Origin: Patescibacteria group bacterium
GTDB lineage: Bacteria; Patescibacteriota; UBA1384; XYA2-FULL-43-10; 1-14-0-10-43-13
Assembly (NCBI GenBank): GCA_038078835.1
Contig: JBBTQI010000001.1
Span: 722-64,721 of the forward strand
Direction: 5' to 3'
Length of the DNA stretch: 64,000 bases
Under the pieces are notes generated by a model, which was not told where the DNA came from, ran no database searches, and worked only from the letters and a program-made list of their open reading frames with translations. Numbering within the stretch: position 1 is the stretch's first letter; every line of letters starts with the position of its first letter. The translations under genes and the position numbers were made by a program. This document shows, in pieces, positions 1 through 64,000 of this stretch.

Positions 1-707
1 AAGCCTCTGGCCTTTGGCCTCTGGCCTTTGGCCTTGGCGCTGTAAACACTATGATCCACCCCATTATAAATCACAGCAATTTTCTGCGGCGAAACCCGGT
101 ATGTCTCAATAATATCCTTCTTTGATGTTCCGGACACGGTAATAATCTTGGCCGAATCGTGTACCGCCGACTTCATCACCGCCCGGAAAGCGATACGTTT
201 GAGCGAGTTTTGCCGGTGGAGGTGGCCGAACATCGTCAGATCGTGGACGGTCACGACATATCTGCCGCGGTAGCGAAGAGGATGATTGAATTGGGTAAAG
301 TGGACAAGATCAAACTTTTTGGCGTTTAGATAGGAGAGTAGTCTCGTCTGCTCTGCCACGGAGTAGTGGGGAATATCGAGTATACAAACAGTCAAGTTAG
401 GATATCGTTTATCGGTCACGAGGTCTGTATCGTTAGGGGTCTGTCGGCCTTCGGCTCTGAGGCCGCTCAGGCTCGAATAGTTACGTAACCGCTCGATGCT
501 ACCGATACGAGCTTCGTTACCCTGACCGCTCGACGACCTGACGACCACATTTAACCACTCCTTCACCGCTTTCACTCCGGCCGGTCTGATCAGCAAAGTA
601 TATTGATTGGATTTATCTAATGCCAAAATGCCCCGCACGATCTCTAGGGTGTAGCGGCTGACCGACTCCCCCACGCCAATAAAACGACCATCAATCAAAA
701 TTTTCAT
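1..707 (-). CDS. Glycosyltransferase family 1 (GT4-like), N-terminal portion; C-terminus lies beyond window start
   Basis: Reverse translation from ATG at 705-707 reads MKILIDGRFIGVGESVSRYTLEIV...VVTVHDLTMF..., typical GT4 N-domain. The open frame runs to position 1. Codons at 1-45 are a GGCC-type tandem repeat encoding KAKGQRPKARG. Confidence 0.6.
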   Translation of the reverse strand, partial: MKILIDGRFIGVGESVSRYTLEIVRGILALDKSNQYTLLIRPAGVKAVKEWLNVVVRSSSGQGNEARIGSIERLRNYSSLSGLRAEGRQTPNDTDLVTDKRYPNLTVCILDIPHYSVAEQTRLLSYLNAKKFDLVHFTQFNHPLRYRGRYVVTVHDLTMFGHLHRQNSLKRIAFRAVMKSAVHDSAKIITVSGTSKKDIIETYRVSPQKIAVIYNGVDHSVYSAKAKGQRPKARG

Positions 708-4798: not shown

Positions 4799-6028
4799 GT
4801 GATGATAAAATCTTTGGCCAAAATCTTGACTTTAACAGCACTAGCCAGCTTAATCATCGGTCTTAATCCCGGGCGGCTTTTAGCGTTGGATACCTCCAAG
4901 GATAATTTCTTGAGCGGCGATTATAAAAATAATCTTATTGATGATTACTCCTTTATTGACATTAACTCTGTGGATCAGGCGGCGATTCAGAAATTCCTTG
5001 ACGACAAAGAGTCGCCCCTGCGCGACTACTCCGAAGGCGGCCGCTCGGCCGCTCAAATTATTTACGACGCCGCTCACGGCGCCAATGAAGCCAGCGGCGA
5101 CTGGGGCGGTATCAGCGTCAACACAACAACCGGCACCGTCAGTCCCAAAATTATTCTAACCTATCTGGAGAAGGAACAAAGCCTCATCTCCCGCGACGAC
5201 CGGCCCGACAACGTCCTCATCAAAGCTATGGGCTACCAGTGCTACGTTGGCGTCTCCAATGACAACAACGAAAATACCTGCAACGACCGCTATGAAAATT
5301 TTACCCTCCAGATCGAAAACGCCGCCTGGCAGCTGCGCTACAACTATGAATACGCTAAACGGGGCACCAAACCGAGCGGCGTGGCCACCCACTATTTAAC
5401 CAATGATACAGAAACTTTTTATGGCGAATACAAATACAACAACCCCGACAGTGCTTACTACAACCCCAAATATTACGGCCCCTTTGAGATAACTTTCGCC
5501 AATGCCGCCACCGCTTCCATCTATAGCTACACGCCCTACATCTTTGACAGCTCTTACAACTTCTGGCAGATCTTTAACGACTACTTCACCGCCTCGCCGC
5601 CGCCGCCGCCCACCCCCACAACCAACGACACGGCCAGATTGGTCATAAAGACTTATACCAACCCCGTTACCGTGGGCGGAAGCAAGAGCGCCGAAGATGC
5701 CGTCTTCTTTAACAACACCCTTATCGAGGTCGCCGGCAAGACCGCCTGGCAGCTCACCTTTGAAACCGAGATCGGAACCAAAACCTACACCGTTGAGTAT
5801 AAGAACGGCAACAGCGAGGTTGTCGCAACCAAGGAGATTGAGGTTACCCGGCACAAGACCGCCGACATCAACGGCGATGGCAATGTTGATATCCAGGACC
5901 TCTCCCTTCTGGCCAACTATTGGGGGCAGGAGCACCCCGGCGACCCCTTTGCCAATCTGAACCCGGGCGAGGATGAGGTTGTCGACATTATCGATTTATC
6001 AATCTTGGCCAGCAATTGGAACGGCTAA
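4799..6028 (+). CDS. Secreted protein with C-terminal type I dockerin-like domain
   Basis: Signal peptide MMIKSLAKILTLTALASLIIG, a PPPPPTPTT linker, then DINGDGNVDIQDLSLLANYW ... DEVVDIIDLSILASNW, which matches the duplicated dockerin Ca-binding loop plus helix. GGAGGGGGAG RBS upstream. Confidence 0.6.
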   Translation: MMIKSLAKILTLTALASLIIGLNPGRLLALDTSKDNFLSGDYKNNLIDDYSFIDINSVDQAAIQKFLDDKESPLRDYSEGGRSAAQIIYDAAHGANEASGDWGGISVNTTTGTVSPKIILTYLEKEQSLISRDDRPDNVLIKAMGYQCYVGVSNDNNENTCNDRYENFTLQIENAAWQLRYNYEYAKRGTKPSGVATHYLTNDTETFYGEYKYNNPDSAYYNPKYYGPFEITFANAATASIYSYTPYIFDSSYNFWQIFNDYFTASPPPPPTPTTNDTARLVIKTYTNPVTVGGSKSAEDAVFFNNTLIEVAGKTAWQLTFETEIGTKTYTVEYKNGNSEVVATKEIEVTRHKTADINGDGNVDIQDLSLLANYWGQEHPGDPFANLNPGEDEVVDIIDLSILASNWNG

Positions 6029-6029
6029 T

Positions 6030-6150
6030 CTCCTACAAAATTACAAATTTATCGAAACTACAAATACTACAAAACTATGAATCAGCGATCCCTCTTTGTT
6101 TGTGATTTTGTAAGATTTGTACTTTTGTGTAATTTGTAATTTTGTAGGAG
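6030..6150. repeat. MITE-like element with perfect 19-bp terminal inverted repeats (CTCCTACAAAATTACAAAT)
   Basis: tcctacaaaattacaaatt at 6031-6049 is the exact reverse complement of aatttgtaattttgtagga at 6131-6149. Internal arms are CAAAT/ATTTG-rich. The right TIR supplies the AGGAG SD of the downstream gene. Confidence 0.7.
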
Positions 6151-7408: not shown

Positions 7409-8740
7409 ATGAAAAAAATTGTCTTAATCTCCTCCGACAAGGTGGGTAGAACGATGGCGGGACCGGGGATCCGCTATTTTGAGATGGCTCGCGCCCTGGC
7501 CCAAGATTTTAACGTCACCCTGGCCGTCCCCAACGAGTGCGATCTGGCCGGCGAGGGCTTCTCTCTTAAGACTTACAACTCGCGCTGGCCGAGCCACACC
7601 CTCAAAGCGACGGTTGCCCCAGCCGATGCGGTTGTTGCCCAAGCCCTCTGGCCCGATCTGCTTTTTTACCTCAAGCGCCATAAAATCAAATATATCGCCG
7701 ACCTCTACGATCCCGTTGTCATTGAGGTGCTTGAATATTTAAAAAACGAACCGCCGGCCCGTCAGCGTCGGACATTTGACTTCCATCGCCGCAATCTCCT
7801 GCTGCAAGTTAATACCGCCAACCACCTCCTTTGCGCCACTCCGACCCAACGCGATTTCTACCTCGGCATCCTCTCCGGCCAGGGCCTGATTACGCCGCGC
7901 GAGTACAGCCAATCGGACGATCTGACCCGCTCCATCTCTCTCTTACCCTTTGGCCTGCCCAAAGATCCGCCCAAGCCGCCCGGCCGCTTTAAATTTGAGG
8001 AACTGTATCCGGCGATTCGACTCTCTGATAAAGTTGTTTACTGGGGCGGGGGCATCTGGAACTGGTTTGATCCCTTGACCGCTATCAAGGCAATCGAGCA
8101 GATCAGCCGGAAGCGGAGTGATATTAAACTGGTTTTTCTGGGCGCCAAGCATCCCAACAAAAAGATTAAAGCCATGGCGGCGGTGACTGAGGCCGTTGAA
8201 TACTGCCGGAAGCACGATTTACTTGACCGCTTCGTCTTCTTCAATTTTGACTGGACTCCTTACGAGGAGCGCGCCGGTTATCTTGCCAGAGCCAATATAG
8301 GCATTTCGACCCACCGCCAAAATCTTGAGACTCACTTCTCCTTCCGGACACGGATTCTTGACTATCTTTGGGCCGAACTGCCGATGGTCCTCACCGAGGG
8401 CGACGCCTTAAGCGAGATGGTGCGAGAAAAAAATCTCGGAGCGGTAATCAAGGCGAGCGATGTTCCGGGTGCGGCCAGAGCCATCATCGAGCTGGCCGAC
8501 AACGGTCGGCGGCGGGACGAGATAAAGCGCAATATCAGAGCGGTCAAAGATCAATACTGCTGGGAGAGAGTCGTTGCCAACCTGGCTGATTTGATTAAGC
8601 GGGACACCCTGCCCGATCGGCCTCTTTCTTACCTCAAACTGTTGCGCCTCGCCAAAAATTTTTACTGGGCGGGAATGATTAAAAAATTAAATTCCAAATC
8701 ACAAATAACAAATGTTTGGAAATTGATAATTGGACTTTGA
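7409..8740 (+). CDS. Glycosyltransferase family 1 (GT4)
   Basis: 443 aa with a GT4-type C-terminal domain (VYWGGGIWNWFDPLTAIKAI...LGAVIKASDVPGAARAI). The last ~18 codons (KKLNSKSQITNVWKLIIGL) are encoded by the repeat element at 8688. Confidence 0.7.
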   Translation: MKKIVLISSDKVGRTMAGPGIRYFEMARALAQDFNVTLAVPNECDLAGEGFSLKTYNSRWPSHTLKATVAPADAVVAQALWPDLLFYLKRHKIKYIADLYDPVVIEVLEYLKNEPPARQRRTFDFHRRNLLLQVNTANHLLCATPTQRDFYLGILSGQGLITPREYSQSDDLTRSISLLPFGLPKDPPKPPGRFKFEELYPAIRLSDKVVYWGGGIWNWFDPLTAIKAIEQISRKRSDIKLVFLGAKHPNKKIKAMAAVTEAVEYCRKHDLLDRFVFFNFDWTPYEERAGYLARANIGISTHRQNLETHFSFRTRILDYLWAELPMVLTEGDALSEMVREKNLGAVIKASDVPGAARAIIELADNGRRRDEIKRNIRAVKDQYCWERVVANLADLIKRDTLPDRPLSYLKLLRLAKNFYWAGMIKKLNSKSQITNVWKLIIGL

Positions 8741-8778
8741 GATTTATTTGGTATTTGTTATTTGATGTTTGGAGTTTA
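8688..8778. repeat. CAAAT/ATTTG palindromic element (copy 3)
   Basis: aattccaaatcacaaataacaaatg paired with atttggtatttgttatttgatgtttgg. Overlaps the 3-prime end of the GT1 gene and precedes the flippase start. Confidence 0.6.
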
Positions 8779-8784
8779 AAGATA

Positions 8785-13901: not shown

Positions 13902-14070
13902 TAGTTTGTTGGCAAGTTAACAAGCCTGCTAATCTCGACGTGATTCTTCCGTCATTATAGATCAATTTTTCAGTTCAGCCAAAAGTGTCAAGCCAAGTAA
14001 TATTTCTCTCCCCCTGCTCAGCCAGTTTAATATCCTTAACTTTATAATCCATACTGCCTTCCTTCTTTGC

Positions 14071-16326
14071 TTACTTGCTGTCTTGCTTACTTGCCTGCTC
14101 CTCGGAGCCTTGGCGCAGTGGGGCTGTCTTGCTGACAAAAACGATGTCGGCAATCGCATTTTCCCCGGCGACATTGATGATTTTGATCTCGTCGTCCGCT
14201 TTAATATCGATATCGCCCAGCTTGCGCCAAACAAACTTTTCCACTCCAACATCCTTGTCAACTTGGAACTTGTCACCCTTCGGGTGATCGCCCGCAGGGC
14301 GAAAAACTGAAAACTGGAAACTTCCTGACGAGCCTCCGACAAGGTGGCGAATCCAGAGCTCATAGGAGCCGCTCTCAGTCGCTTTTCCTGACAGAACGCT
14401 CTCCGGCTTGTCGGTGTAGATAAAATCCTGCCGCAGTTGGGTAAAGAGGTGTTTGCGCCAGAAATCATACCGTCCCCGACTCCAACCATCTTCATAGTAG
14501 GCAAACCCCCTTGCCCACTCCGTTATCGGCAATTGTTTAATTGCCTTATTGCCCCACTGTCCCCTTGCCGAATTGCCAATTTTGGTTATTCGATCATTGG
14601 AATTTATTTGGGATTTGTTGTTTGGATTTTGGAATTTGAAAATATGGATATTTTCCCCGAACCTCTTTGTTTCCACCAATCCCTCCTTTGATCTCACCAA
14701 TGCCAGAAGATCGGTCTGATTCCACTTTTTGACGATAACCGGATCGGTCTCTCGCCAAAGATTGGAGGCTTGAGCAAAGCGGCTCTCCGTATCCAGACGA
14801 AGAATGACGCAATCAACGCCGCCCTCTGCCAGCAGAGAGGCAAATTCGCCCTGATCATGCTTTTCGTAAAATTGCGACACTAATTCATTGCGATAGAACC
14901 GCTCGGCCGTCGGCAAAAAAGAGAAGGTCGCGCCATCGTCAAGGCGCGGCACACCCAGCGCCAGAGCCAAGAGATCGGAGTTGGCCGCATCGCGAAATTC
15001 GGCCCGCTCATCTTTAAAGTAGACAAAGCCCAGTCCCGGCGGATAATAGGCCTTTTGACACACACCGCTATCAGCCAGATAATTTTTCAGTTCCCGATAC
15101 TCCGCCGGCACTTTGGTGAGCGGCAGGTAACCGGCATAGTCAAACGTTAAATAGGGCGCGATGATAAATAAGGCGCTGCCGGCAAGCAAGGTCTTAAGGC
15201 CGGAGGCTAAAGGCCGGAGGCTAAAGGCCGATAAGCAAGCGAAAAGATAATCCAAGCCAAAGGCAAAGAGAATAATGGCGGCGGCCGCGACAATGAATTG
15301 GAGATGATAGATCTCGCGGAAAATACCCAGCGCCGGTATCCGCTCAAACAGCGCGACAAAGATTGGCCCCAACGGTCCGCTCGGACCCTTGGGAAAGGGG
15401 GCAACCGATATTAACGTCAATATGCTGGTCAGCGCCAATTCGCGGCGGGGACGATTCCCGAGGCCGAAAAGAGCCGCCAACCAGAAGACAGCCAAACCAA
15501 AAAGATAGCGGGGATCATGCGAGAGGGCGTAAAAGAAATTATGGGTAATCTGGTGATCGGAGAAGTTCAGAAAATTCCCGGCGCTGTGGGGCATCATTCG
15601 CATATACTCCAGCGTTGTGACGGCCACTGCCCTAATCTGCTCCGCACCCTGATCATAGCTCAAAGACAAGACGAACCAGGGCAGAAGAAAGAGGACAAGA
15701 GCCGACCAAGAGAAGATCAAATTAAAGAAACGCTCTCGTCGTCGCCCGGCGGCAACGAGAAGGTTAATCATCAAAAAGAGGGTCAGAAGCAGGCCCGCCT
15801 GGACTTGGGCAAAAACAAGCGAATAAAGAAAACCCAAACCAAGATAGTGCCGCCAGTTTTTTTTCTTGATATTAAAATAAAGGTGGAGAAAAAAGGGCAA
15901 GGCGGCGAAGGCCAAAAGCGACCAGCGGAAACCAACAATTGTTCGGACAAAAAGATAAGGATTAAAGGCGTAAACCAGAGCCGAAATCGTGGCAGCGAGC
16001 CGGTTTACGCCTTGCGACTTAGCGAAAAGAAAAAACCCGGCGGCGGCCAGAGCGTGAAGAAGAATAAGAAAGAGAGCGAAACTGAACTCCGGTCGAAATA
16101 GACCCAGCGGGGCCAGAAGAATCAAGCCGTTTTTGCTGGCAAAGTCAAAGGGATTGCCGGCCCGAAAATCGCCAAACTCCCGCCAAAGATTTCTCATATC
16201 CAGAAGCGGCCAATCCCAATCATAACGAAGGGGCAGGCCGTCTGATCGCAAATGCGATAAAACCAAAACAGCAAGCATCAATAAAGATACCGCAATCACT
16301 TGTTTTGATTTGATTATGTTAAACAT
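14071..16326 (-). CDS. Large GT-C fold membrane protein (YfhO/ArnT-like) with C-terminal extracytoplasmic domain
   Basis: 751 aa with an about 12-TM N-terminal region and a soluble C-terminal domain. Carries in-frame repeat insertions at 14581-14645 and 15193-15236. Confidence 0.55.
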   Translation of the reverse strand: MFNIIKSKQVIAVSLLMLAVLVLSHLRSDGLPLRYDWDWPLLDMRNLWREFGDFRAGNPFDFASKNGLILLAPLGLFRPEFSFALFLILLHALAAAGFFLFAKSQGVNRLAATISALVYAFNPYLFVRTIVGFRWSLLAFAALPFFLHLYFNIKKKNWRHYLGLGFLYSLVFAQVQAGLLLTLFLMINLLVAAGRRRERFFNLIFSWSALVLFLLPWFVLSLSYDQGAEQIRAVAVTTLEYMRMMPHSAGNFLNFSDHQITHNFFYALSHDPRYLFGLAVFWLAALFGLGNRPRRELALTSILTLISVAPFPKGPSGPLGPIFVALFERIPALGIFREIYHLQFIVAAAAIILFAFGLDYLFACLSAFSLRPLASGLKTLLAGSALFIIAPYLTFDYAGYLPLTKVPAEYRELKNYLADSGVCQKAYYPPGLGFVYFKDERAEFRDAANSDLLALALGVPRLDDGATFSFLPTAERFYRNELVSQFYEKHDQGEFASLLAEGGVDCVILRLDTESRFAQASNLWRETDPVIVKKWNQTDLLALVRSKEGLVETKRFGENIHIFKFQNPNNKSQINSNDRITKIGNSARGQWGNKAIKQLPITEWARGFAYYEDGWSRGRYDFWRKHLFTQLRQDFIYTDKPESVLSGKATESGSYELWIRHLVGGSSGSFQFSVFRPAGDHPKGDKFQVDKDVGVEKFVWRKLGDIDIKADDEIKIINVAGENAIADIVFVSKTAPLRQGSEEQASKQDSK
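14581..14645. repeat. CAAAT-family element copy inside CDS (in-frame, encodes FKFQNPNNKSQINSNDRITKIG)
   Basis: ttggaatttatttgggatttgttgtttggattttggaatttg. Same orientation relative to the coding strand as the other intragenic copies. Confidence 0.55.
15193..15236. repeat. GGCC-type 13-mer tandem repeat (AAGGCCGGAGGCT x about 2.7) inside CDS
   Basis: cttaaggccggaggctaaaggccggaggctaaaggccg. In-frame, encodes ...SAFSLRPLASGLK.... Related copies at 1-45 and 57326-57390. Confidence 0.6.
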
Positions 16327-18293: not shown

Positions 18294-20892
18294 CTCTCTG
18301 TCCTCGCCTTACCAGTAGGTACCGCAAACTTGCCAACATGGCTAACGCTGATATAATCAATCCCAGATAGAATAATCTCTGTGGCCAGAACTCAATAATT
18401 AATTCGAGGCTCTTGGTGCCATCGGGATTGGTTTGACAATGGCCGCTCTCTTGGCAAAACCTTTCTGCATTGACAATCCATGCATTAGCGTAACCGTTTA
18501 CTTTAAGATGGGTTTGAGCATCGCCAAGAGGAGCCTTAAACCAGGTTTCGGCAACTCCACCATTACCTAGATTATCATTTTGAATGGTTCCTTGGAAGTT
18601 TTTGGACACAAAGTCAATCTTGTTCCGATCGCCTAAAGTTGACACCAAACCTCGATTAACATAATCAGCCAGCTCCTCCCGAGTTGCCCCATCCGCCTCA
18701 TTCCCCCCTGGAATTTGATAAGAATTCAGCAGGTCAGCAGGTAAGCTAGTAAGCGAGTCAGCTGTCTTGCTATCTTGCTGTCTTGCTATCTTGCTTATAT
18801 AAATCTTCCACCCCCTATGGTACGCCTCATTAAAAACCAGCAGGAAGTCTTCCCTGGCCTGATGTGCAACAACGCGATATTTGACCGGGGAGATTTTCTT
18901 GAATTCAATTGCCGGAGGATTAACCGTTTCTTCCGCCAAGCGCGCCATGGATTCGGCTTTATTCGGATTGTCGCCGCCAAAGACTACTGCCGATGCCGTC
19001 TCCTTCGGCCAAATATCCAGAATTTTGGCCGGCACTTCATTTGATTTGACGATTTTTCGAGGAACGTAAATATGCGGGAGGAAAGATTGGCCGTTCAGGC
19101 GGTAGAGAAAAAAGTCGCCCCAGATTTGTACTAAAGAGAAGCGTTCACTTCTGAGCATGCTTGCGATCATCTCTCTGTTAATCTTGTTTTTATAGACTTC
19201 CTCATTGACATTATCCCGACGGAAAATAACATAACGCGTATTCAAAATCGCCAAATAGCGATCGATCTCTTCGGAGAAATTCTGAAATTCATTCTCGTAC
19301 CGACGATAAAGATCGGCTAATAGTGGTGACGATTGCGGATTAAGACCGATGCTGTTACCGTACTGGTTCAAAATTAAATAGGGGGCGGGACCGAGTAAAT
19401 TCCAGAGCGGGTCAACACCGACGCTTGACCAGCGGTAAATCGTCCAGGAGCCGGAGGGAGAGCCGGCATTATCGGGCAAAATCAGGTTGCGTTGGTCAAG
19501 GCGAATCCGCTTAACTCGCTCTGCCCCTGCATAATAATCCACCGGAATAGAGTAGTAGCGTTTAAGAAATTTATTGGGGATCACCTCGTTCCGGGGAATG
19601 ATGCCATTAATAAAGAAGGGGTAGGCGTTAATGGCAATCGCTCCCAATGTTAGAGCCAGAGCCAGCCAGCCCAACTTCCTCCGATAAGCAAATACTGCTG
19701 ATAGAGCGAGCGCCAAGAAAATCGACAGGACAAGAATGAGAATCGGATAGAATTTTTCCATCGAGAAACGGAAGATCCGAAAGGGCGTGTTGTCAATCAG
19801 CCAGGCAAAGGGAGCAGCCAGAGGATCATGAATGCCCTTAATAAGAAAGATTAAAACTAGCGCTGTTACCGCCCACACAAAGTATCTCTTCAAGTACTTG
19901 CCCTTTTCCCAGAGAAAAAAAGTCCAGGGCAACAAAGCCAAAAAGTATCCGGCCAGGATTATAAGCGGTTTGGTAAAGTAATATTTCCCGAAGAGATAAT
20001 AATTGGGATCACGTGTCGCCCAGAATCCTTGAAGGCGCAAAACCTCAAAAAAGGAAGTGAAGCGAAACTCATAATTCCGCAAGTTTCCATTGTCAACCCC
20101 GGCGCTCTGGCCCATAAACTTGCTCGATTCAAAAAAAGAGAGTGGGCGCAGAATCCACCATAGGTTGGCTAGTAGGTAAATCAGGGTAAATTGGAGATAA
20201 GTCGTTTTATTCTGCCAAATATCCCGCCGGTAGATGATGCCTAAGGGAATTAAGATCATAAAGAAGGCCAAAAAGTAAGCCGGATTCTCAAAAGCCGGGA
20301 CAGCTAAGATGTTTACAAAAATAAAATATAGAAAATAACGTGACTTAACCCTTTTCTCCTTCGCTTCAAATATCCTGATCAGATAATAAATAAGCAAGGG
20401 GGCGATGCTGTATATGAACATGGCGATCAGGAAACCGTGTCCCCAGCGATAGTTATAGAGAAAGGGATTAAGGGAGTAAAACAGGGCACCAACTAAACTG
20501 ATCAAGTTCAGTGCCGGCTGTTTCGCTAAGTTCTTTCTGACAAAATGCCGCACCAGAACAAATGCCGAGAGGCCCGAAAAAAAGAACCAGATTAAAAAAA
20601 GCATCTTCTCGGTGAGAGAGATATTGCGGGTGAAAAAGTGAATCAAGACAAGCAATGAGGTATAAATAAGCGAAGCAGCGTTCCGGTCTTGGGAAACACC
20701 CAGACCGCGAGTGTGATCCCAGCGATACCAGAGTTTCTCCGTGTCAGTGATCGGCTCAAGCATAAAGGAGAAATCGGCCACGTTGATAATGTTATTACCG
20801 TGAAACCAGAAAAAGACCTGACTGGCCAGAACGGCCAAAAGCAGGACATAAAACCAATCTCGGCTGAGAATTTTCTTGAACTTATCGATCAT
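18277..20892 (-). CDS. Large GT-C fold membrane glycosyltransferase-like protein (871 aa) with C-terminal beta domain and terminal TM anchor
   Basis: About 13 TM helices then a soluble domain. The C-terminus ...NGYANAWIVNAERF...LELIIEFWPQRLFYLGLIISALAML mirrors the YfhO-type C-terminus. Paralog of the 832 aa protein. Confidence 0.55.
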   Translation of the reverse strand: MIDKFKKILSRDWFYVLLLAVLASQVFFWFHGNNIINVADFSFMLEPITDTEKLWYRWDHTRGLGVSQDRNAASLIYTSLLVLIHFFTRNISLTEKMLFLIWFFFSGLSAFVLVRHFVRKNLAKQPALNLISLVGALFYSLNPFLYNYRWGHGFLIAMFIYSIAPLLIYYLIRIFEAKEKRVKSRYFLYFIFVNILAVPAFENPAYFLAFFMILIPLGIIYRRDIWQNKTTYLQFTLIYLLANLWWILRPLSFFESSKFMGQSAGVDNGNLRNYEFRFTSFFEVLRLQGFWATRDPNYYLFGKYYFTKPLIILAGYFLALLPWTFFLWEKGKYLKRYFVWAVTALVLIFLIKGIHDPLAAPFAWLIDNTPFRIFRFSMEKFYPILILVLSIFLALALSAVFAYRRKLGWLALALTLGAIAINAYPFFINGIIPRNEVIPNKFLKRYYSIPVDYYAGAERVKRIRLDQRNLILPDNAGSPSGSWTIYRWSSVGVDPLWNLLGPAPYLILNQYGNSIGLNPQSSPLLADLYRRYENEFQNFSEEIDRYLAILNTRYVIFRRDNVNEEVYKNKINREMIASMLRSERFSLVQIWGDFFLYRLNGQSFLPHIYVPRKIVKSNEVPAKILDIWPKETASAVVFGGDNPNKAESMARLAEETVNPPAIEFKKISPVKYRVVAHQAREDFLLVFNEAYHRGWKIYISKIARQQDSKTADSLTSLPADLLNSYQIPGGNEADGATREELADYVNRGLVSTLGDRNKIDFVSKNFQGTIQNDNLGNGGVAETWFKAPLGDAQTHLKVNGYANAWIVNAERFCQESGHCQTNPDGTKSLELIIEFWPQRLFYLGLIISALAMLASLRYLLVRRGQRDEEQI
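18721..18806. repeat. About 80-nt segment near-identical to 23296..23372, containing 8-mer tandem repeat (RTCTTGCT x4)
   Basis: gaatttgataagaattcagcaggtcagcaggtaagctagtaagcgagtcagctgtcttgctatcttgctgtcttgctatcttgct. Encodes QQDSKTADSLTSLPADLLNSYQI in-frame. Confidence 0.6.
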
Positions 20893-22874: not shown

Positions 22875-25347
22875 CCGATCTCACTCTGTCTCGCCGATAA
22901 TACCAAATTAGAAATCCCAAACAAGACAAAAAAGTAATTCCGCTTATAGCCAAGCCCAAATAAAAAACTCTCTGAAGCCAATATTCGATCACGATCTCCA
23001 TTTCGTAACCGCCATCTGAATTTAGCGCACAACCGCCGTTTTGGCAAGCCGCCGCCGGGTCAATTACCCAGGCGTTGGCGAAACCGTTGGCCGTAAGATG
23101 CGGCGTCTCAAAGGAAGGCTTAAAATACGTCTCGTAAAATGGCCCCCCCCCTAGATTATCATTCTGTATTGTACCCCGATTCTCCCGGGAGATAAACTTA
23201 ATCGTGCCCTTCTCCCCCAACGTCGTCACCAAATCTTTGGCAATGTAATCTTTAAGCTCATCTCTACTCGCCTGTTCCCCCTCATTTCCCTTCAGAATTT
23301 GATAAGAATTCAGCAGATCAGCAGGTAAGCTAGTAAGCAAGTCATCTGTCTTGCTGTCTTGCTGTCTTGCTAATTTATAGATTTTCCACTTCTCGTCAAA
23401 GCTTTCATTGAGCACAAGGCTAAAAGGTTTGCGGACGCTACTGATCTTCAGTCGGTATTTAACCGGCGAGATTTTTTTGTATTCAATCCGCGGTGCTTGC
23501 TTCCCGTCAATTTGACTTACCAGTTGATCGATTCCCCTAGGGTTTTGGCTGCGTAAAAAGACGGCTGGCGAAGTATTTTTATTAATATCGCCGCCAAAGC
23601 CTTGCAAAGCAGCTATCTCCCCGTTGATAATCCGGGCGTCGCCGGTCGCATATAAATGCGGCCGGGTATTTTTCAGGCGATAGATGACCGTTTGCCCCTC
23701 GGCAAACACCTGCTCCAGCCGACCGCCTAAAACCTCCTTCTCGAGCGCTTGCCACATTTGCCGGCGGCCATCGTTATTAAGATCGTAATTTGAGATATTT
23801 TTTCGCAAAACGATATATCTAACCCCTGTCGGCCATAAGGCGTCCGCAATATTGCCCTCGACGGTTGACTTCTTTAACATATCCAGAAAGTCAGTCGGGC
23901 CAAGGTGGCGATCGGTGGCGGTTAATAAGCCGGGAATGGGAGAGTAGATGGCAAAGATATCGCGAATGCCGCGGGAATATTTCGGGTCATCGTCAACAAC
24001 CATACCACTATAGGAATAGGGCAAATAAAGCACCTTGATATCAGCCTCTTGCCGCGCCATAAACTCCTCGGCCCGATACGCCTCAGGCGGGAAGATCTTG
24101 GTTGTCAGGCGACTGTCGTTGCCGGCGCGATGCTCCCAGGCCGCGAGCTCCCCCGACCACCAAGGGACAAGATAGGTAATCCAAATAGTAAAAAGAAGGA
24201 TGATCGCTATTCTATATTTGCGGTACGAAAGCCAAAAATGATCTACCGCCAGGGCAATCAGAACAGAGAAAGCAAAAACCGATAGCACGCTAAAACGGGC
24301 CAAATCCCGTATCACATTTGAGAAGGGAATATTGAGGAGCACTTCCCGATGCAAGCTAAGATAATACATCTCCAGAGGCACCAGGGCTACAAGCCAGAGT
24401 GAGACAATCAGCCTTCTTCTCTCTTTAATAAAAAGGGTTGGCAGCACTAACAGGGGCACTAAAAATGACAGGAGTGAAAGACCATAGTTGTTAATGATTG
24501 TTTCGTACTGCATATTGTAGAGCGAGCCCCAAAGACGAATTATATTAAGAGGATAAAAATTAAGCGTTGTTCCCCGACTTGTAGTAGCAAAGACATATTC
24601 CGAGCCGGCCACTCCCTCATCCGAGAAAAAAATCTGTTGCAAAAGAGTCGGAGACAATAGGAGAAGGGCAATTATATTGACACTTAAAAGGACCTTTATT
24701 ATTCTGCCGGGACTACCGGCCGTCTTGTAACGGTAGTATGTAAACGCTAACAGAATAATATTGAGCCAAACAAGCGATTGGGGCTGCAGAAAAGAAATTG
24801 CTATCAAAAAAGAAGTGATGACAACCGCCCGGTTGTTTCCGTTAGCCACAGCCTCAATAAAGTACTTTGCCGCCAGCGGTGCAATACCCAAGAACAAGAT
24901 AGCGTAAAACCAGCCGATGATCGCGTAGTTAAACATCACCGGAGTTGTGACATAAAATACCGCCATCAGAGCAGCAACCGGATAGCCAAACTTCAAGTAC
25001 CTGAGAAAGTTAAAGAAAGAATATCCGGCTAGGGCAAACAGGGTGAGAATTAATAATTTTATATGAACCTCGCCGCCCAGCCCGATCAAAGACATGGCGT
25101 TGTTAACAAGTTGCCTCGATAGATCAAATCCAACGGTTTGATTGCGAAACGCGACAATACTGTTAAAGTCCCAAGCGTAAAATGCCATCTGCAGGGATTT
25201 GTATGTCTGAATTTTAGTTAAGGGAAAAGCAATATCTTCACCGATAATAAATCCGGGGAGAGCAACAACGCGGAAGAGAAGCGCAACTGATATCGCGGCA
25301 AAAAAGATGAGGGGTAACAATATTTTTACTTTAGGGAAAATCTTCAT
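22849..25347 (-). CDS. Large GT-C fold membrane glycosyltransferase-like protein (832 aa), paralog of 18277..20892
   Basis: C-terminal region ARQQDSKTDDLLTSLPADLLNSYQI...NGFANAWVIDPAAAC...EIVIEYWLQRVFYLGLAISGITFL is collinear with the 871 aa protein. Confidence 0.55.
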   Translation of the reverse strand: MKIFPKVKILLPLIFFAAISVALLFRVVALPGFIIGEDIAFPLTKIQTYKSLQMAFYAWDFNSIVAFRNQTVGFDLSRQLVNNAMSLIGLGGEVHIKLLILTLFALAGYSFFNFLRYLKFGYPVAALMAVFYVTTPVMFNYAIIGWFYAILFLGIAPLAAKYFIEAVANGNNRAVVITSFLIAISFLQPQSLVWLNIILLAFTYYRYKTAGSPGRIIKVLLSVNIIALLLLSPTLLQQIFFSDEGVAGSEYVFATTSRGTTLNFYPLNIIRLWGSLYNMQYETIINNYGLSLLSFLVPLLVLPTLFIKERRRLIVSLWLVALVPLEMYYLSLHREVLLNIPFSNVIRDLARFSVLSVFAFSVLIALAVDHFWLSYRKYRIAIILLFTIWITYLVPWWSGELAAWEHRAGNDSRLTTKIFPPEAYRAEEFMARQEADIKVLYLPYSYSGMVVDDDPKYSRGIRDIFAIYSPIPGLLTATDRHLGPTDFLDMLKKSTVEGNIADALWPTGVRYIVLRKNISNYDLNNDGRRQMWQALEKEVLGGRLEQVFAEGQTVIYRLKNTRPHLYATGDARIINGEIAALQGFGGDINKNTSPAVFLRSQNPRGIDQLVSQIDGKQAPRIEYKKISPVKYRLKISSVRKPFSLVLNESFDEKWKIYKLARQQDSKTDDLLTSLPADLLNSYQILKGNEGEQASRDELKDYIAKDLVTTLGEKGTIKFISRENRGTIQNDNLGGGPFYETYFKPSFETPHLTANGFANAWVIDPAAACQNGGCALNSDGGYEMEIVIEYWLQRVFYLGLAISGITFLSCLGFLIWYYRRDRVRSDGQKVANV
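23296..23372. repeat. Second copy of the about 80-nt conserved segment / 8-mer repeat (GTCTTGCT x3)
   Basis: gaatttgataagaattcagcagatcagcaggtaagctagtaagcaagtcatctgtcttgctgtcttgctgtcttgct. Confidence 0.6.
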
Positions 25348-49523: not shown

Positions 49524-51152
49524 CTATCTCGTCTTGGCGGTTTTTTCCCTCGGCGAGAAATCCATTAAGTGGCCCAAGACTTTGCCGGCCGCTCTAAAGA
49601 GAAATTTGACATCGCTAAGATTTCTGACGCCCAGAATTTTTCTCAAGATAAACTTCGGCGTGATAAATGATTTATAAAGACCTTGCGTCAACTCTTTGAT
49701 GTCCTCCTCTGTCAAAGGTGATTTCATCACTGCCATGCGCTGGTCGTAATCCTCCCAGTCCTCCGTTAAGAGCCAGCCATTCTTTTTGCACTCGGCAAAG
49801 AGCGGCGTGCCCGGGTAAGGGATAACGATGGTTGCCTGAAGAGTGTCGACATAACCTTTATCAAAAAGCTTCTTTGACAATTCGATTGTTCTTTCGGCGT
49901 CTCTCTTGCTCTCCCAGGGATACCCCATCATCGTCGTTATATGGGGCTCAAGTCCGCCCTTCTTGGCCATCCGGACACCTTTTTCGATTTCCGCTACCTT
50001 GAGGTTTTTATTGATCCGGTCGAGCGTCTTTTGGTTCGCCGATTCCAAGCCGTAGAGAATAAAGCGAAAACCGGCCTTCCCCATCAGATTATACTCCTCC
50101 TGATTTAGAGCTTTAAGGCGCATATTGCAGTCGATTTTGATCTTCTTGTTGTAACCGCGCTCAATCATCCCCTCACAGAACTCTTTGAGCCATGATCCGA
50201 TGGGAAAGGAGCCGGAGTCGTCCATAATCTCCTTAATGTGATATTTTTCAATCAATGTGCCGATTTCGTCCAGCACTCGCTTGACCGAGTGCTTGCGGTA
50301 ATCCTTACCGGGATAAAGGGTGGTCCAGCTGCAGAACCCACATTTTCCCCACCAGCAATCGCGAGCGGCATAAGTGTAGGTCCCAGGTGTTCGCTTGTAG
50401 TTACCGTTCTTGTAGGCGTAAAGATGCCACTTGGTGAGATCCCGGTCGATCAACGGGAGCTCATCAAGATCGTGATTAAGCTCAAAATGCCCCGTGTTTT
50501 GGTAGTTGGTAGCCAGTGATTGGTATTTGGTATTTAGGGATTGAGTTTTGGAACTTATTTGGGATTTGGGATTTGGGATTTGGGATTTTCCAGAGCGGTA
50601 CCAAATTCCCGGCTCGAGTGATTCGCCGTGATTAAGATGATTAGCGATATTCAATAGAAGAAAATCATAATCGCCGCCGGTGGCAATATAATCTACCTTT
50701 GAATTTTCCATTGATTCCCGCGGCAAAGCAGTCACATGATCACCGACCAGGACAATTTTCAAATTCCAGTCTTCAGTTTTCAATGATTCTTCTTTGAGAA
50801 CATCGATTACCTTCCAGTGGCGCTTGACTACCGGCGCTTTGGTTTCCAGCATTATAAGATCCGGCTTAAACCGCTTAATCCGCTCCAGCCACTCCTCCTG
50901 TGTCAACTCCTCGGCAATACCGTCATCCCACATCACTTCATAACCCTGATCCTGAAGCAGTGAGGCCGCGTATGAGGGGACCATCGGATAAATATAGGTC
51001 GGATTATTAAACCATTGAAACTGGCGGTTCTGGCCCAAACAGGGGGTGCCCTTCTCGTCCGGCATCGGCGGATAGGAAATCGCTACCTTGAATTTCGCGT
51101 TCTTCCTCCGCTGATCTTCTGTTGGTTTGGCAATATGTTTAATTGGTCTCAT
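49524..51152 (-). CDS. B12-binding domain radical SAM enzyme (class B rSAM, probable sugar methyltransferase/modifier)
   Basis: N-terminal cobalamin-binding-like domain (KPDLIMLETKAPV...KIVLVGDHVT), then CWWGKCGFC (Cx4Cx2C) and an rSAM core. Contains an in-frame CAAAT-family element at 50497-50590 in the interdomain linker. Confidence 0.6.
   Translation of the reverse strand: MRPIKHIAKPTEDQRRKNAKFKVAISYPPMPDEKGTPCLGQNRQFQWFNNPTYIYPMVPSYAASLLQDQGYEVMWDDGIAEELTQEEWLERIKRFKPDLIMLETKAPVVKRHWKVIDVLKEESLKTEDWNLKIVLVGDHVTALPRESMENSKVDYIATGGDYDFLLLNIANHLNHGESLEPGIWYRSGKSQIPNPKSQISSKTQSLNTKYQSLATNYQNTGHFELNHDLDELPLIDRDLTKWHLYAYKNGNYKRTPGTYTYAARDCWWGKCGFCSWTTLYPGKDYRKHSVKRVLDEIGTLIEKYHIKEIMDDSGSFPIGSWLKEFCEGMIERGYNKKIKIDCNMRLKALNQEEYNLMGKAGFRFILYGLESANQKTLDRINKNLKVAEIEKGVRMAKKGGLEPHITTMMGYPWESKRDAERTIELSKKLFDKGYVDTLQATIVIPYPGTPLFAECKKNGWLLTEDWEDYDQRMAVMKSPLTEEDIKELTQGLYKSFITPKFILRKILGVRNLSDVKFLFRAAGKVLGHLMDFSPREKTAKTR
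50497..50590. repeat. CAAAT-family element inside CDS with TTGGGA x4 hexamer run (encodes KSQIPNPKSQISSKTQSLNTKYQSLATNYQ)
   Basis: tttggaacttatttgggatttgggatttgggatttgggatttt. In-frame within the rSAM gene. Confidence 0.6.
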
Positions 51153-57003: not shown

Positions 57004-57080
57004 TTTTCCAAATGACTAATGACGAATATGACGATCCCCTTATTGGTTATTCGTTATTTGGATAATTTGTCATCCATTTG
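57004..57080. repeat. CAAAT/ATTTG palindromic element (intergenic, between GT2 and rmlD)
   Basis: ttccaaatgactaatgacgaatatgacg paired with ttattcgttatttggataatttgtcatccatttg. Confidence 0.5.
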
Positions 57081-58056
57081 TGGCGCGATTGCGTAAGTAA
57101 TCGCCCAGCATTTCTTGCCACGGCCTAACCTCGATCCCTAATGCTGATTTAATCTTCTCTTTGGAGAGATAGGAGTAAGCCGGACGCCTGGCCACCTGAG
57201 GATATTCTGCACTAGAGATAGGCTTTAAGTCAAGAGTTGTCCCGGTTTGAGCGAAAATTTCTTTGGCAAAATCATACCAGGAGCACGCCCCCTCGCCGGA
57301 GAAGTGGTAGATACCACATGGCAAGCTTAAGGCCGGAGGCTTAAGGCCGGAGGCTACATCAATACTGCCTTCGGCCTTTGGCCTTAGGCCTTCGACGATC
57401 TGGTTAATGAAACTGACCAGATCCCCCGTATAAGTCGGCGAGCCGACTTGATCATTGACGACCGACAACGAATCGCGCTCTTTGGCCAAGTGCAGCATTG
57501 TCTCAACGAAATTTGTGTCGGGATGTCCCTCCGGCAATTCGCCGAATATCCAGGCTGTCCGGATAATGTAATAGCCGCCCTTCGGGGACTGTCCCCCTGA
57601 GAGCCTGCCCCGTACTCGATACGGGGGGACTGTCCCCTTGTATGCTCTCTCAACCGCCAGCTCCCCTTCATACTTTGTCATACCGTACACCGAGAGCGGA
57701 TGGGGCTCGTCGGTTTCGACGTACGGGACGCCATTTTCGCCGTCAAAGACATAATCGGTGGAGATGTAAATCAGGTTTACTCCGGCCGCAGCCGCGGCTT
57801 TGGCGACATTCTCGGTGCCGGCAACATTGATCCGGCGGCACAGCGCCTCGTTCTCCTTGGCCTTGTCAACTTGAGTGTAAGCCGCCCCGTGGATAATCCA
57901 ATCCGGTTTCTCCCTTGATATGACCGCGCTGACTTTATCCGGATCGGTGATATCCATATCATCGGAATCAGTCAAAATCAGCCGGTACTTAGTACCCAGT
58001 AATTCGGAAATCTTATGGCCAAGCTGGCCTTTTGCGCCGGTAACCAGAACCTTCAT
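57070..58056 (-). CDS. rmlD: dTDP-4-dehydrorhamnose reductase with two in-frame repeat-element insertions
   Basis: MKVLVTGAKGQLG...IHGAAYTQVDKAE...NVAGTENVAKAAAAAGVNLIYISTDYVFDG, the RmlD signature. 328 aa versus about 290 typical. Extra segments coincide with the repeats at 57326-57390 and 57581-57640. Confidence 0.8.
   Translation of the reverse strand: MKVLVTGAKGQLGHKISELLGTKYRLILTDSDDMDITDPDKVSAVISREKPDWIIHGAAYTQVDKAKENEALCRRINVAGTENVAKAAAAAGVNLIYISTDYVFDGENGVPYVETDEPHPLSVYGMTKYEGELAVERAYKGTVPPYRVRGRLSGGQSPKGGYYIIRTAWIFGELPEGHPDTNFVETMLHLAKERDSLSVVNDQVGSPTYTGDLVSFINQIVEGLRPKAEGSIDVASGLKPPALSLPCGIYHFSGEGACSWYDFAKEIFAQTGTTLDLKPISSAEYPQVARRPAYSYLSKEKIKSALGIEVRPWQEMLGDYLRNRATNG
57326..57390. 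repeat. GGCC-type element: TTAAGGCCGGAGGC x2 plus inverted copy (GCCTTCGGCCTTTGGCCTTAGGCC)
   Basis: In-frame within rmlD, encoding GLRPKAEGSIDVASGLKPPALSLP. Same 13-mer as at 15193-15236, and a one-mismatch variant at 1-45. Confidence 0.6.
57581..57640. repeat. Palindromic element: GGGGACTGTCCCC x2 flanking a CCCGTACTCGATACGGGG hairpin
   Basis: ggggactgtcccc at 57584-57596 and 57625-57637. In-frame in rmlD, encoding TVPPYRVRGRLSGGQSPKGG, which is absent from canonical RmlD. Confidence 0.55.
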
Positions 58057-62374: not shown

Positions 62375-62464
62375 CTCCTGCAAAATTACAAATTCAACAA
62401 AATTACGAATCTTACAAATATTTGTAATATTTGTAGTTTCGGGAGATTTGCAATTTTGTAGGAG
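62375..62464. repeat. MITE-like element, same TIR family as 6030..6150 (CTCCTGCAAAATTACAAAT ... ATTTGCAATTTTGTAGGAG)
   Basis: TIRs match with 2 mismatches. The internal acaaattcaacaaaattacgaat is near-identical to the copy at 63694-63716. Confidence 0.65.
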
Positions 62465-62477
62465 ATTGGAGGTAGTG

Positions 62478-63680: not shown

Positions 63681-63769
63681 CTCCGACAAAACTACAAATT
63701 CAACAAAATTACGAATTTTACAAATACATGTGGCGAGCAGAGTCGAATCCATTTGTAAATTTACAAGAG
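63681..63769. repeat. MITE-like CAAAT element copy (ACAAATTCAACAAAATTACGAAT core) between DUF59 gene and SOD gene
   Basis: ctccgacaaaactacaaattcaacaaaattacgaattttacaaatac paired with atttgtaaatttacaagag. Confidence 0.55.
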
Positions 63770-63775
63770 AAGTAA

Positions 63776-64000
63776 TTATTTAGCAAACCGCTCTGAAACT
63801 TTTTCCCAATTGATGATATTCCAGATACTATTAACATAATCAGCCCGCATGTTCTTGTACTTCAGATAATAAGCATGCTCCCAGACATCAATCAAGAGAA
63901 GCGGAGTGTGGCCCAGCGACAGAGGCGAATCCTGGTTGGGTAAACCATAAATTTTCAACTTGCCATTGCTTCCTTTAACCAACCAGCCGTAACCGCTGCC
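63776..64000 (-). CDS. Fe/Mn superoxide dismutase, C-terminal part (gene runs past window end)
   Basis: [37 protein letters not shown], the SOD C-terminal domain signature. The open frame continues to position 64000. Confidence 0.8.

Follow-up and report, generated by a model that had tools for sequence, protein, structure and literature searches.

Heptanucleotide tandem arrays in frame within enzyme genes of a groundwater Patescibacteria genome

A 64,000-nucleotide stretch of a Patescibacteria genome (contig JBBTQI010000001.1 of assembly GCA_038078835.1; hereafter the window) carries short tandem repeats inside the reading frames of unrelated enzyme genes, and these repeats are the subject of this report. 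The window is the reverse complement of positions ~1639-65638 of the ENA contig ERZ1292638 NODE_18 (179 kb), which comes from 0.1-µm-filtered Hainich groundwater and was used for extension past the window. The census of loci spans about 75 kb of genome, that is, the 64-kb window and its flanks. In this span we found the repeat at five loci, all five of them coding: one in a gene for a GT-C-like membrane protein, one in rmlD, two in a GT4 glycosyltransferase gene and one in a gene for superoxide dismutase (SOD). The host genes and arrays are as follows.

1..707, minus strand: 5' part of the GT4 host gene, residues 1-235 of a 431-aa GT4 glycosyltransferase; the gene runs off the window leftward
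3..38, minus strand: GT4 array site 1, 4.7 copies of GCCTCTG/GCCTTTG, read as AKAKGQRPKARG
14071..16326, minus strand: GT-C-like host gene, a 751-aa membrane protein with no Pfam match itself; three homologues have PF11847
15191..15232, minus strand: GT-C array, 2.5 units of a 14-nt superunit (AAGGCCGGAGGCTA, + strand) of alternating heptamers, read as SAFSLRPLASGLK
57070..58056, minus strand: rmlD host gene (dTDP-4-dehydrorhamnose reductase), 328 aa versus ~284 aa in insert-free relatives
57321..57358, minus strand: rmlD insert, coding-sense 3' arm, 2.2 units of the 14-nt superunit TTAAGGCCGGAGGC, read as ASGLKPPALSL
57359..57366, minus strand: rmlD insert, loop part, encoding SIDV; most of the 12-nt unpaired loop 57355-57366
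57367..57394, minus strand: rmlD insert, coding-sense 5' arm, an inverted array of GCCTTNG with 3.7 copies on the + strand, read as EGLRPKAEG; pairs with 57321-57358
Gene at L001:1252-1863, just past window position 64000: SOD (Fe/Mn superoxide dismutase), with the array CCGAAGGCCGAAGGCTTAAGGCCGAAGGCGG, read as PKAEGLRPKAE

The arrays are built of heptamers of the form AGGC(C/T)NN with the core AGGCC (GCCTNNN on the other strand), and the period is 14 nt, or two heptamers, often alternating AAGGCCG and GAGGCTW. A preliminary description of this DNA, made from the sequence alone, had taken the unit to be 13 nt long, which Tandem Repeats Finder corrects. The program returned arrays with periods of 7 and 14 and 88-100% matches: 15196-15230 in the GT-C-like gene (period 14, 2.5 copies, 100% matches), 57325-57355 in rmlD (period 14, 2.2 copies, 100% matches) together with 57367-57392 (period 7, 3.7 copies), and 3-38 at GT4 site 1 (period 14 with 2.6 copies, or period 7 with 4.7). 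The three tandem sites that had been described, in the GT-C-like, rmlD and glycosyltransferase genes, are present with their frames preserved and with an inverted partner at rmlD, and the peptides SAFSLRPLASGLK, GLRPKAEGSIDVASGLKPPALSLP and AKAKGQRPKARG had been read correctly. The glycosyltransferase gene does carry an array as described, but it had been labelled GT1 and is a GT4 (Glycos_transf_1) gene.

The family is strongly enriched in the window. The motif GCCTNNNGCCTNNNGCC with at most one mismatch has 13 matches versus 1.0 expected, a number reached by no shuffle, and the 1.5-unit motif AGGC[CT]NNAGGC occurs 14 times versus 0.95 in simulation, with every occurrence inside the GT-C, rmlD and GT4 loci. 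The family is not restricted to the three sites first described. Two further loci lie just outside the window, namely the SOD array and a second, small GT4 array (AAAGGCCAAAGGCCGAAGG, read as QRPKAEG) in the full GT4 gene (L005:11393-12688). Positions 15193-15223 of the GT-C array and 57326-57356 of the rmlD array are 97% identical over 31 nt (repeat family D9), and synonymous positions are the same in both copies. GGCC as a single word is not over-represented (observed/expected 0.74), and an explanation of the HIP1 type was rejected. A known RNA family was rejected as well, because no Rfam family matches anywhere in the window.

Apart from the heptamer, the sites have little in common. They measure 19-74 nt, or about 3 to about 9 heptamer units, with an arrangement and copy number that differ at every site, and the unit may lie on either strand relative to the gene. 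No element length and no consensus beyond the heptamer was common to the sites examined, and their flanks, on inspection, showed neither terminal inverted repeats nor duplication of a target site. The gene calls, which covered about 35 kb of the contig, included no transposase gene; the sole mobile-element-type gene was a PF07508 recombinase outside the window. An assembly artefact is ruled out, since the rmlD and GT4 arrays, like the DNA of both genes, are identical in four independent assemblies from different samples, all representing a single aquifer population. The locus tag of the GT-C-like protein (AAB360_00065) implies that it is the 13th gene of its NCBI contig, which fits a start of that contig at window position 1, inside the GT4 heptamer array. 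This array may have broken the NCBI assembly; the longer ENA contig reads through it.

Reading frames and protein loops

All arrays are in frame and free of stops in the four genes. One unit is read in all three frames (ASGLK, PPALS and SLRPL), and the repeat therefore exists at the DNA level rather than as a selected peptide motif, in agreement with the earlier proposal of a single DNA-level family lying in frame in unrelated genes. Since 7 and 3 have no common factor, every frame of a heptamer array encodes one and the same cyclic heptapeptide, computed as K-A-x-G-x-R-P for one strand and x-G-L-x-A-x-x for its complement. Any reading of a heptamer array in the former sense yields KAxGxRP, and this explains the recurring RPKAEG-like peptides without selection. 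EGLRPKAEGSIDVASGLK is an example of a peptide predicted from the arrays. For the 14-mer, we computed that TAA or TAG appears once per 14 codons on both strands, so that coding arrays are capped below three units, as observed. The longest open run is 13 codons, and the GT-C array fills this maximum. A translational bypass element (byps, T4 gene 60 type) is a hairpin insert left untranslated in a reading frame, as a rule with a frame break or a stop and with take-off and landing codons that match. It appeared unlikely and was set aside, since every array is in frame and without stops.

The clearest case is rmlD, where the array appears to be a true net insertion of 22-25 aa and the only clear insertion among the sites. 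Fewer than six extra residues are present at this position in 85 of 120 Patescibacteria homologues (basal length 284 aa), and the blocks in which solved RmlD structures can be aligned leave out residues ~138-160 and ~223-247. An AlphaFold2 model (mean predicted local distance difference test, pLDDT, 89.5; predicted TM-score 0.88) drops in pLDDT only in the 10-residue blocks of 141-160 (means 51 and 57) and 221-250 (65, 51 and 77); in it, regular secondary-structure elements are joined by coil at residues 139-161 and 224-247. According to the model, the segment translated from the array would lie in a disordered surface loop, which bears out the earlier statement that new peptide segments are created in loops. 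The two arms pair in heptamer register into a hairpin of -42 kcal/mol as RNA (z -4.9, a stability that 0 of 200 shuffles reached; z -4.0 as DNA), the first 4 bases of its 12-nt loop overlapping the end of the 57321-57358 array.

The other sites gain little or no length. Both GT4 array segments, which are in direct and not inverted orientation, align residue for residue with the loops of 22 homologues (0 aa gained), and for site 1 the unchanged loop length is also supported by two solved GT4 structures. At site 2, the homologue P0144 has KMAEGI where the host gene has PKAEGV. In SOD the array stands in place of the canonical P-N-G-G-G-E-P-T-G-E loop, with a gain of only 1-2 aa, and the SOD of a syntenic relative keeps a canonical GGGEPGGK loop. 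The GT-C array, which gives no hairpin signal (z +0.9), sits in a loop of variable sequence and length throughout the 20 homologues, and several of these carry repeat-like peptides there, such as KLQTANCKLQTAN, which have the look of being repeat-derived. The copies outside rmlD fall in segments that differ from one homologue to another, and comparison with orthologues confirmed that the encoded segments are not conserved. The preliminary description had called all the repeats inserted. This is apt for rmlD, but not for GT4 (0 aa at both sites) or SOD (1-2 aa), nor can it be read from the GT-C loop, which is variable in all homologues. To judge from these alignments, the arrays seem both to insert into loops (rmlD) and to overwrite them (GT4 twice, SOD).

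Two of the host genes carry further in-frame segments of another kind. In rmlD, a second and unrelated insert (57577-57645, minus strand, residues ~138-160, GTVPPYRVRGRLSGGQSPKG) is missing from the solved RmlDs and has low pLDDT. It consists of two copies of the near-palindrome GGGGACAGTCCCC around a CCCCGTA…TACGGGG hairpin, and its motif was found nowhere else in the window. In the GT4 gene, the N-terminal domain contains an in-frame insert of some 45 aa (~408-548, minus strand, residues 54-100) that is missing in 21 of the 22 homologues. Its DNA has TCGAGCGGT and GGTAACG/CGTTAC repeats as well as a CGTATC…ATCGAG motif, which recur in the rmlD insert of the syntenic relative L133 and in the host's first rmlD insert. 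It may represent a third, non-heptamer repeat family.

Relatives and known repeat classes

Insertions at the same positions are common in RmlD of other Patescibacteria. At least six extra residues at one of three hot spots were found in 49 of the 120 homologues, 35 of them having extra residues at the site used here, 12 at the middle site and 30 at the N-terminus. The carriers are scattered on a neighbour-joining tree of 284 core columns, with a minimum of 22 changes at the main site, although this is a weakly resolved tree of a single gene. The insert peptides are of recurring types (QDLGLRTQ…PKTQDL and QQSAVGS…QTANRK), and a single protein can carry one type at several of its sites. Of the five relatives whose DNA was fetched, four have RmlD inserts built from the heptamers of their own genomes, sometimes as inverted pairs; in the fifth, L133, the site is taken by a repeat of another, non-heptamer kind. 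Three of the relatives' loci were scanned in detail, and their own heptamers recur nearby, both in intergenic DNA and in frame in genes for an aminoacyl-tRNA synthetase, TsaD and FemAB. The folding of the homologues' inserts ranged from z -2.3 to +0.6, some surpassing their shuffles (z -2.1 and -2.3) and several being without signal. A hairpin as a universal function was rejected on these inserts and on the GT-C array.

Several homologues showed related features. TsaD is enlarged in two other Patescibacteria, to 585 aa (L009 15867-17624) and 425 aa (L010 16670-17947), and each of the two genes contains several in-frame heptamer arrays, of which TTAGAAATTTTAAATTTTAAATTGTT is common to both genomes. 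The GT-C-like homologues P0126 and P0137 have inserts with peptides such as LLRRSHTPRNDG (alignment columns ~230-270), and the RmlD homologue P0042 begins with SFPRRRESS…LDSRLRGND. We take peptides of the LLRRSHTPRNDG and SFPRRRESS…LDSRLRGND types to be typical translations of GC-rich palindromic repeats in many metagenomic open reading frames (ORFs).

In searches of other genomes, the specific 14-mer patterns had 0 matches in 241 million JGI metagenome records, and a composite peptide query for further proteins with a repeat-encoded segment had no match in the protein search. A scan of species-representative genomes with AGGCCNNAGGCNNRAGGCCNNAGGC gave matches which, where inspected, were AGGCC-type heptamer arrays of other phyla; no Patescibacteria title was among the matches listed. 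Arrays of the form (NRAGGCC)n occur in many phyla (L012-L131, among the matches listed), Myxococcota, Gemmatimonadota, Acidobacteriota, Actinomycetota and Bacteroidota included. They occupy several loci per genome, often adjoin the array of another heptamer and are sometimes paired in inverted orientation (e.g. L129). The generic heptamer pattern also matches 38 viral contigs (L134-L171), by pattern match alone. Arrays of the AGGCC type are therefore widespread. Our search of the literature, of incomplete coverage and so no proof that none exists, turned up no account of heptamer arrays lying in frame in Patescibacteria genes.

Heptanucleotide simple sequence repeats (SSRs) are a recognised class, the heptamer outnumbering all other long-SSR units in many genomes; they include the short tandemly repeated repetitive sequences (STRRs) of cyanobacteria (PMC4679880, PMC4692102). 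Heptamer SSR families are mainly intergenic and under-represented in ORFs, where units are expected to be multiples of three (PMC4679880, PMC4692102). Passages of PMC4692102 and PMC4679880 cite Mazel 1990 and Mrazek 2007 for STRRs and heptanucleotide long SSRs, and mention GGGAATC and GGGGAYT repeats in Xanthomonas and Nostoc and TAACTGA repeats in Beggiatoaceae and cyanobacteria. The arrays described here resemble this class in their head-to-tail 7-nt units, their dispersal over loci, the two to few copies per array and the frequent adjoining of arrays of different heptamers. They differ from it in that the known repeats predominate between genes while here 5/5 copies are in frame in enzyme genes, in their occasional inverted pairs, and in having a Patescibacteria host with its own unit.

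Other classes match less well. The preliminary description had compared the repeats with Rickettsia palindromic elements (RPEs), which measure about 150 bp, belong to defined families and often lie in frame, with peptides compatible with the protein fold (PMC10969869). The likeness lies in selfish-looking repeats being in frame in unrelated genes and supplying new loop peptides compatible with the fold, and in the rmlD copy, which is palindromic and located in a surface loop. It goes no further: while each RPE family encodes a conserved peptide, we found only heptamer arrays of no fixed length and variable copy number, most of them non-palindromic, lacking terminal inverted repeats and target duplications, and in several cases replacing loop sequence instead of adding to it. 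The in-ORF repeats of Borgs have units divisible by three, each virtually unique to its locus (PMC9879509). Like them, our arrays are tandem DNA in ORFs that keeps the frame and encodes disordered hydrophilic protein segments; unlike them, they have a unit of 7 or 14 nt that is shared between loci. Repetitive extragenic palindromic sequences (REPs), REPINs and the small dispersed repeats of cyanobacteria (PMC3116915, PMC3733652) are likewise very short, dispersed and sometimes hairpin-forming, but REPs lie outside genes, follow a fixed palindromic consensus and are linked to RAYT transposases (PMC3116915, PMC3733652), none of which was seen here.

Origin of the arrays

We consider, with a probability of about 0.6, that these repeats are dispersed tandem arrays of heptanucleotides, forming a lineage-specific family of the STRR or long-SSR kind within the coding DNA of an uncultivated bacterium. 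Replication slippage within arrays would create and change them, and short-patch copying between arrays, or templated break repair, could spread them. Selection would then retain only the frame-preserving, stop-free patches in tolerant loops. In-frame patches would be tolerated there because a 7-nt unit yields an identical cyclic heptapeptide whichever frame is read, and the encoded peptides themselves are probably neutral passengers. The overwriting of loops without a change of length argues against cut-and-paste insertion.

Some points weigh against this explanation. The copies were counted in about 75 kb of genome only. All five AGGC(C/T)NN copies are coding, whereas known heptamer SSRs are mainly intergenic (PMC4692102, PMC4679880), and other heptamer families of the same window do occur between genes. 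Copy number is invariant across the four assemblies, and thus ongoing slippage is not demonstrated. The nearest RmlD homologue available for comparison is 60% identical, too distant for a gain or loss event to be caught, and the spreading mechanism itself is inferred.

A broader explanation is that an active, lineage-wide process in Patescibacteria writes genome-specific heptamer arrays into or over loop-coding DNA, remodelling the same permissive loops of housekeeping enzymes. Such a process could run by short-patch templated repair or by copying between arrays, and would amount to a mutational engine using a 7-nt unit that is translation-safe in any frame. The three RmlD hot spots, TsaD, the aminoacyl-tRNA synthetases and SOD would be its examples. 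We put this forward tentatively and think it rather unlikely.

It is also conceivable, but unlikely, that the arrays are functional nucleic-acid signals within genes, serving as sites for a heptamer-binding protein or modulating translation, transcription or replication through a hairpin in mRNA or DNA. At rmlD the hairpin exceeds its shuffles in stability by a wide margin, both as RNA and as DNA, some homologue inserts fold better than theirs, and proposals of a role in regulation exist for heptamer arrays elsewhere (PMC4679880, PMC4692102). However, the GT-C array and several homologue inserts have no structure signal, the other arrays have no inverted partner, the orientation relative to the gene differs among sites, and Rfam has no match in the window.

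An RPE-like miniature inverted-repeat transposable element, moved in trans by a transposase and inserted in frame, seems to us a poor candidate. Its in-frame presence in unrelated genes would be accounted for, and the rmlD copy, a strong palindrome that truly adds 22-25 aa to a surface loop, resembles the behaviour of RPEs (PMC10969869). On the other hand, where such an element would have a defined length of about 100-150 bp and a family consensus, the sites have no common length or ends, being 19-74 nt long and each arranged differently; their flanks have neither inverted repeats nor target duplications; the sites tested outside rmlD are not palindromic (the GT-C array, and the GT4 arrays, which are direct); three sites have no or almost no gain of length; and the gene calls for about 35 kb contain no transposase. 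An origin by local slippage of chance proto-repeats, separately at each locus and without any exchange among them, is about as doubtful. GT4 site 2 does overlap residues that look ancestral (KMAEGI in P0144 versus PKAEGV), and the canonical SOD loop codes a Gly-rich sequence fairly close to the unit. Against it stand the same heptamer core at five loci, the absence of the 1.5-unit motif outside the arrays in the window, and the 31-nt stretch of 97% identity between unrelated genes; by a rough estimate, not a computation, chance would not be expected to give two such matches in 64 kb. Finally, a selected functional peptide motif, such as a short linear motif with RPKAEG, is very improbable: peptides of the K-A-x-G-x-R-P type do recur in RmlD, GT4 (twice) and SOD, but this follows automatically from reading any heptamer array, the opposite strand or other phases give unrelated peptides (SLRPLASGLK, PPALSL), and synonymous positions are identical between loci.

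The dispersed heptamer arrays look like an overlooked way of remodelling protein loops. Segments built from repeats are common inside conserved Patescibacteria enzymes and recur at the same loop positions (the host and five fetched loci, four of the five with their own heptamers). Should this be general, it would account for many low-complexity inserts and unusual differences in length among proteins of the candidate phyla radiation, and it counsels caution before such inserts are taken for functional domains. The arrays also offer a tractable system for the spread of dispersed short repeats, in which overwriting that leaves loop length unchanged (GT4, SOD) points to templated patch copying over transposition. 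That 7-nt units are independent of frame is a simple rule for predicting which repeats can survive in genes.

Other repeat families in the window

Arrays of period 7 are enriched in the window as a whole, with 9 observed versus 0.25 expected. A second heptamer family, ATTTGGN, is located at 719-761 / 808-848, 8687-8779, 14597-14648 and 50499-50590. It forms inverted pairs in intergenic spacers and also lies in frame in two linkers, one between the domains of a B12-binding/radical-SAM protein (GKSQIPNPKSQIS) and one in the GT-C-like protein (FKFQNPNNKSQ).

Octamers form two further sets of repeats. Intergenic palindromes of about 120 nt are made from the octamers TTTGTAAN / NTTACAAA and bounded by CTCC…GGAG. 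Arrays of the octamer CTTGCTNT lie at or near the 3' ends of three paralogous genes for large membrane proteins; the C-terminal tail of the 751-aa GT-C-like protein is missing in all 20 homologues. The positions of both are as follows.

6027-6150, 62375-62467 and 63681-63731: octamer palindromes, three copies, 76-89% alike
14051-14094, 18759-18802 and 23343-23378, also 18723-18754: CTTGCTNT octamer arrays, read as …QASKQDSK / ISKIARQQDSKTA

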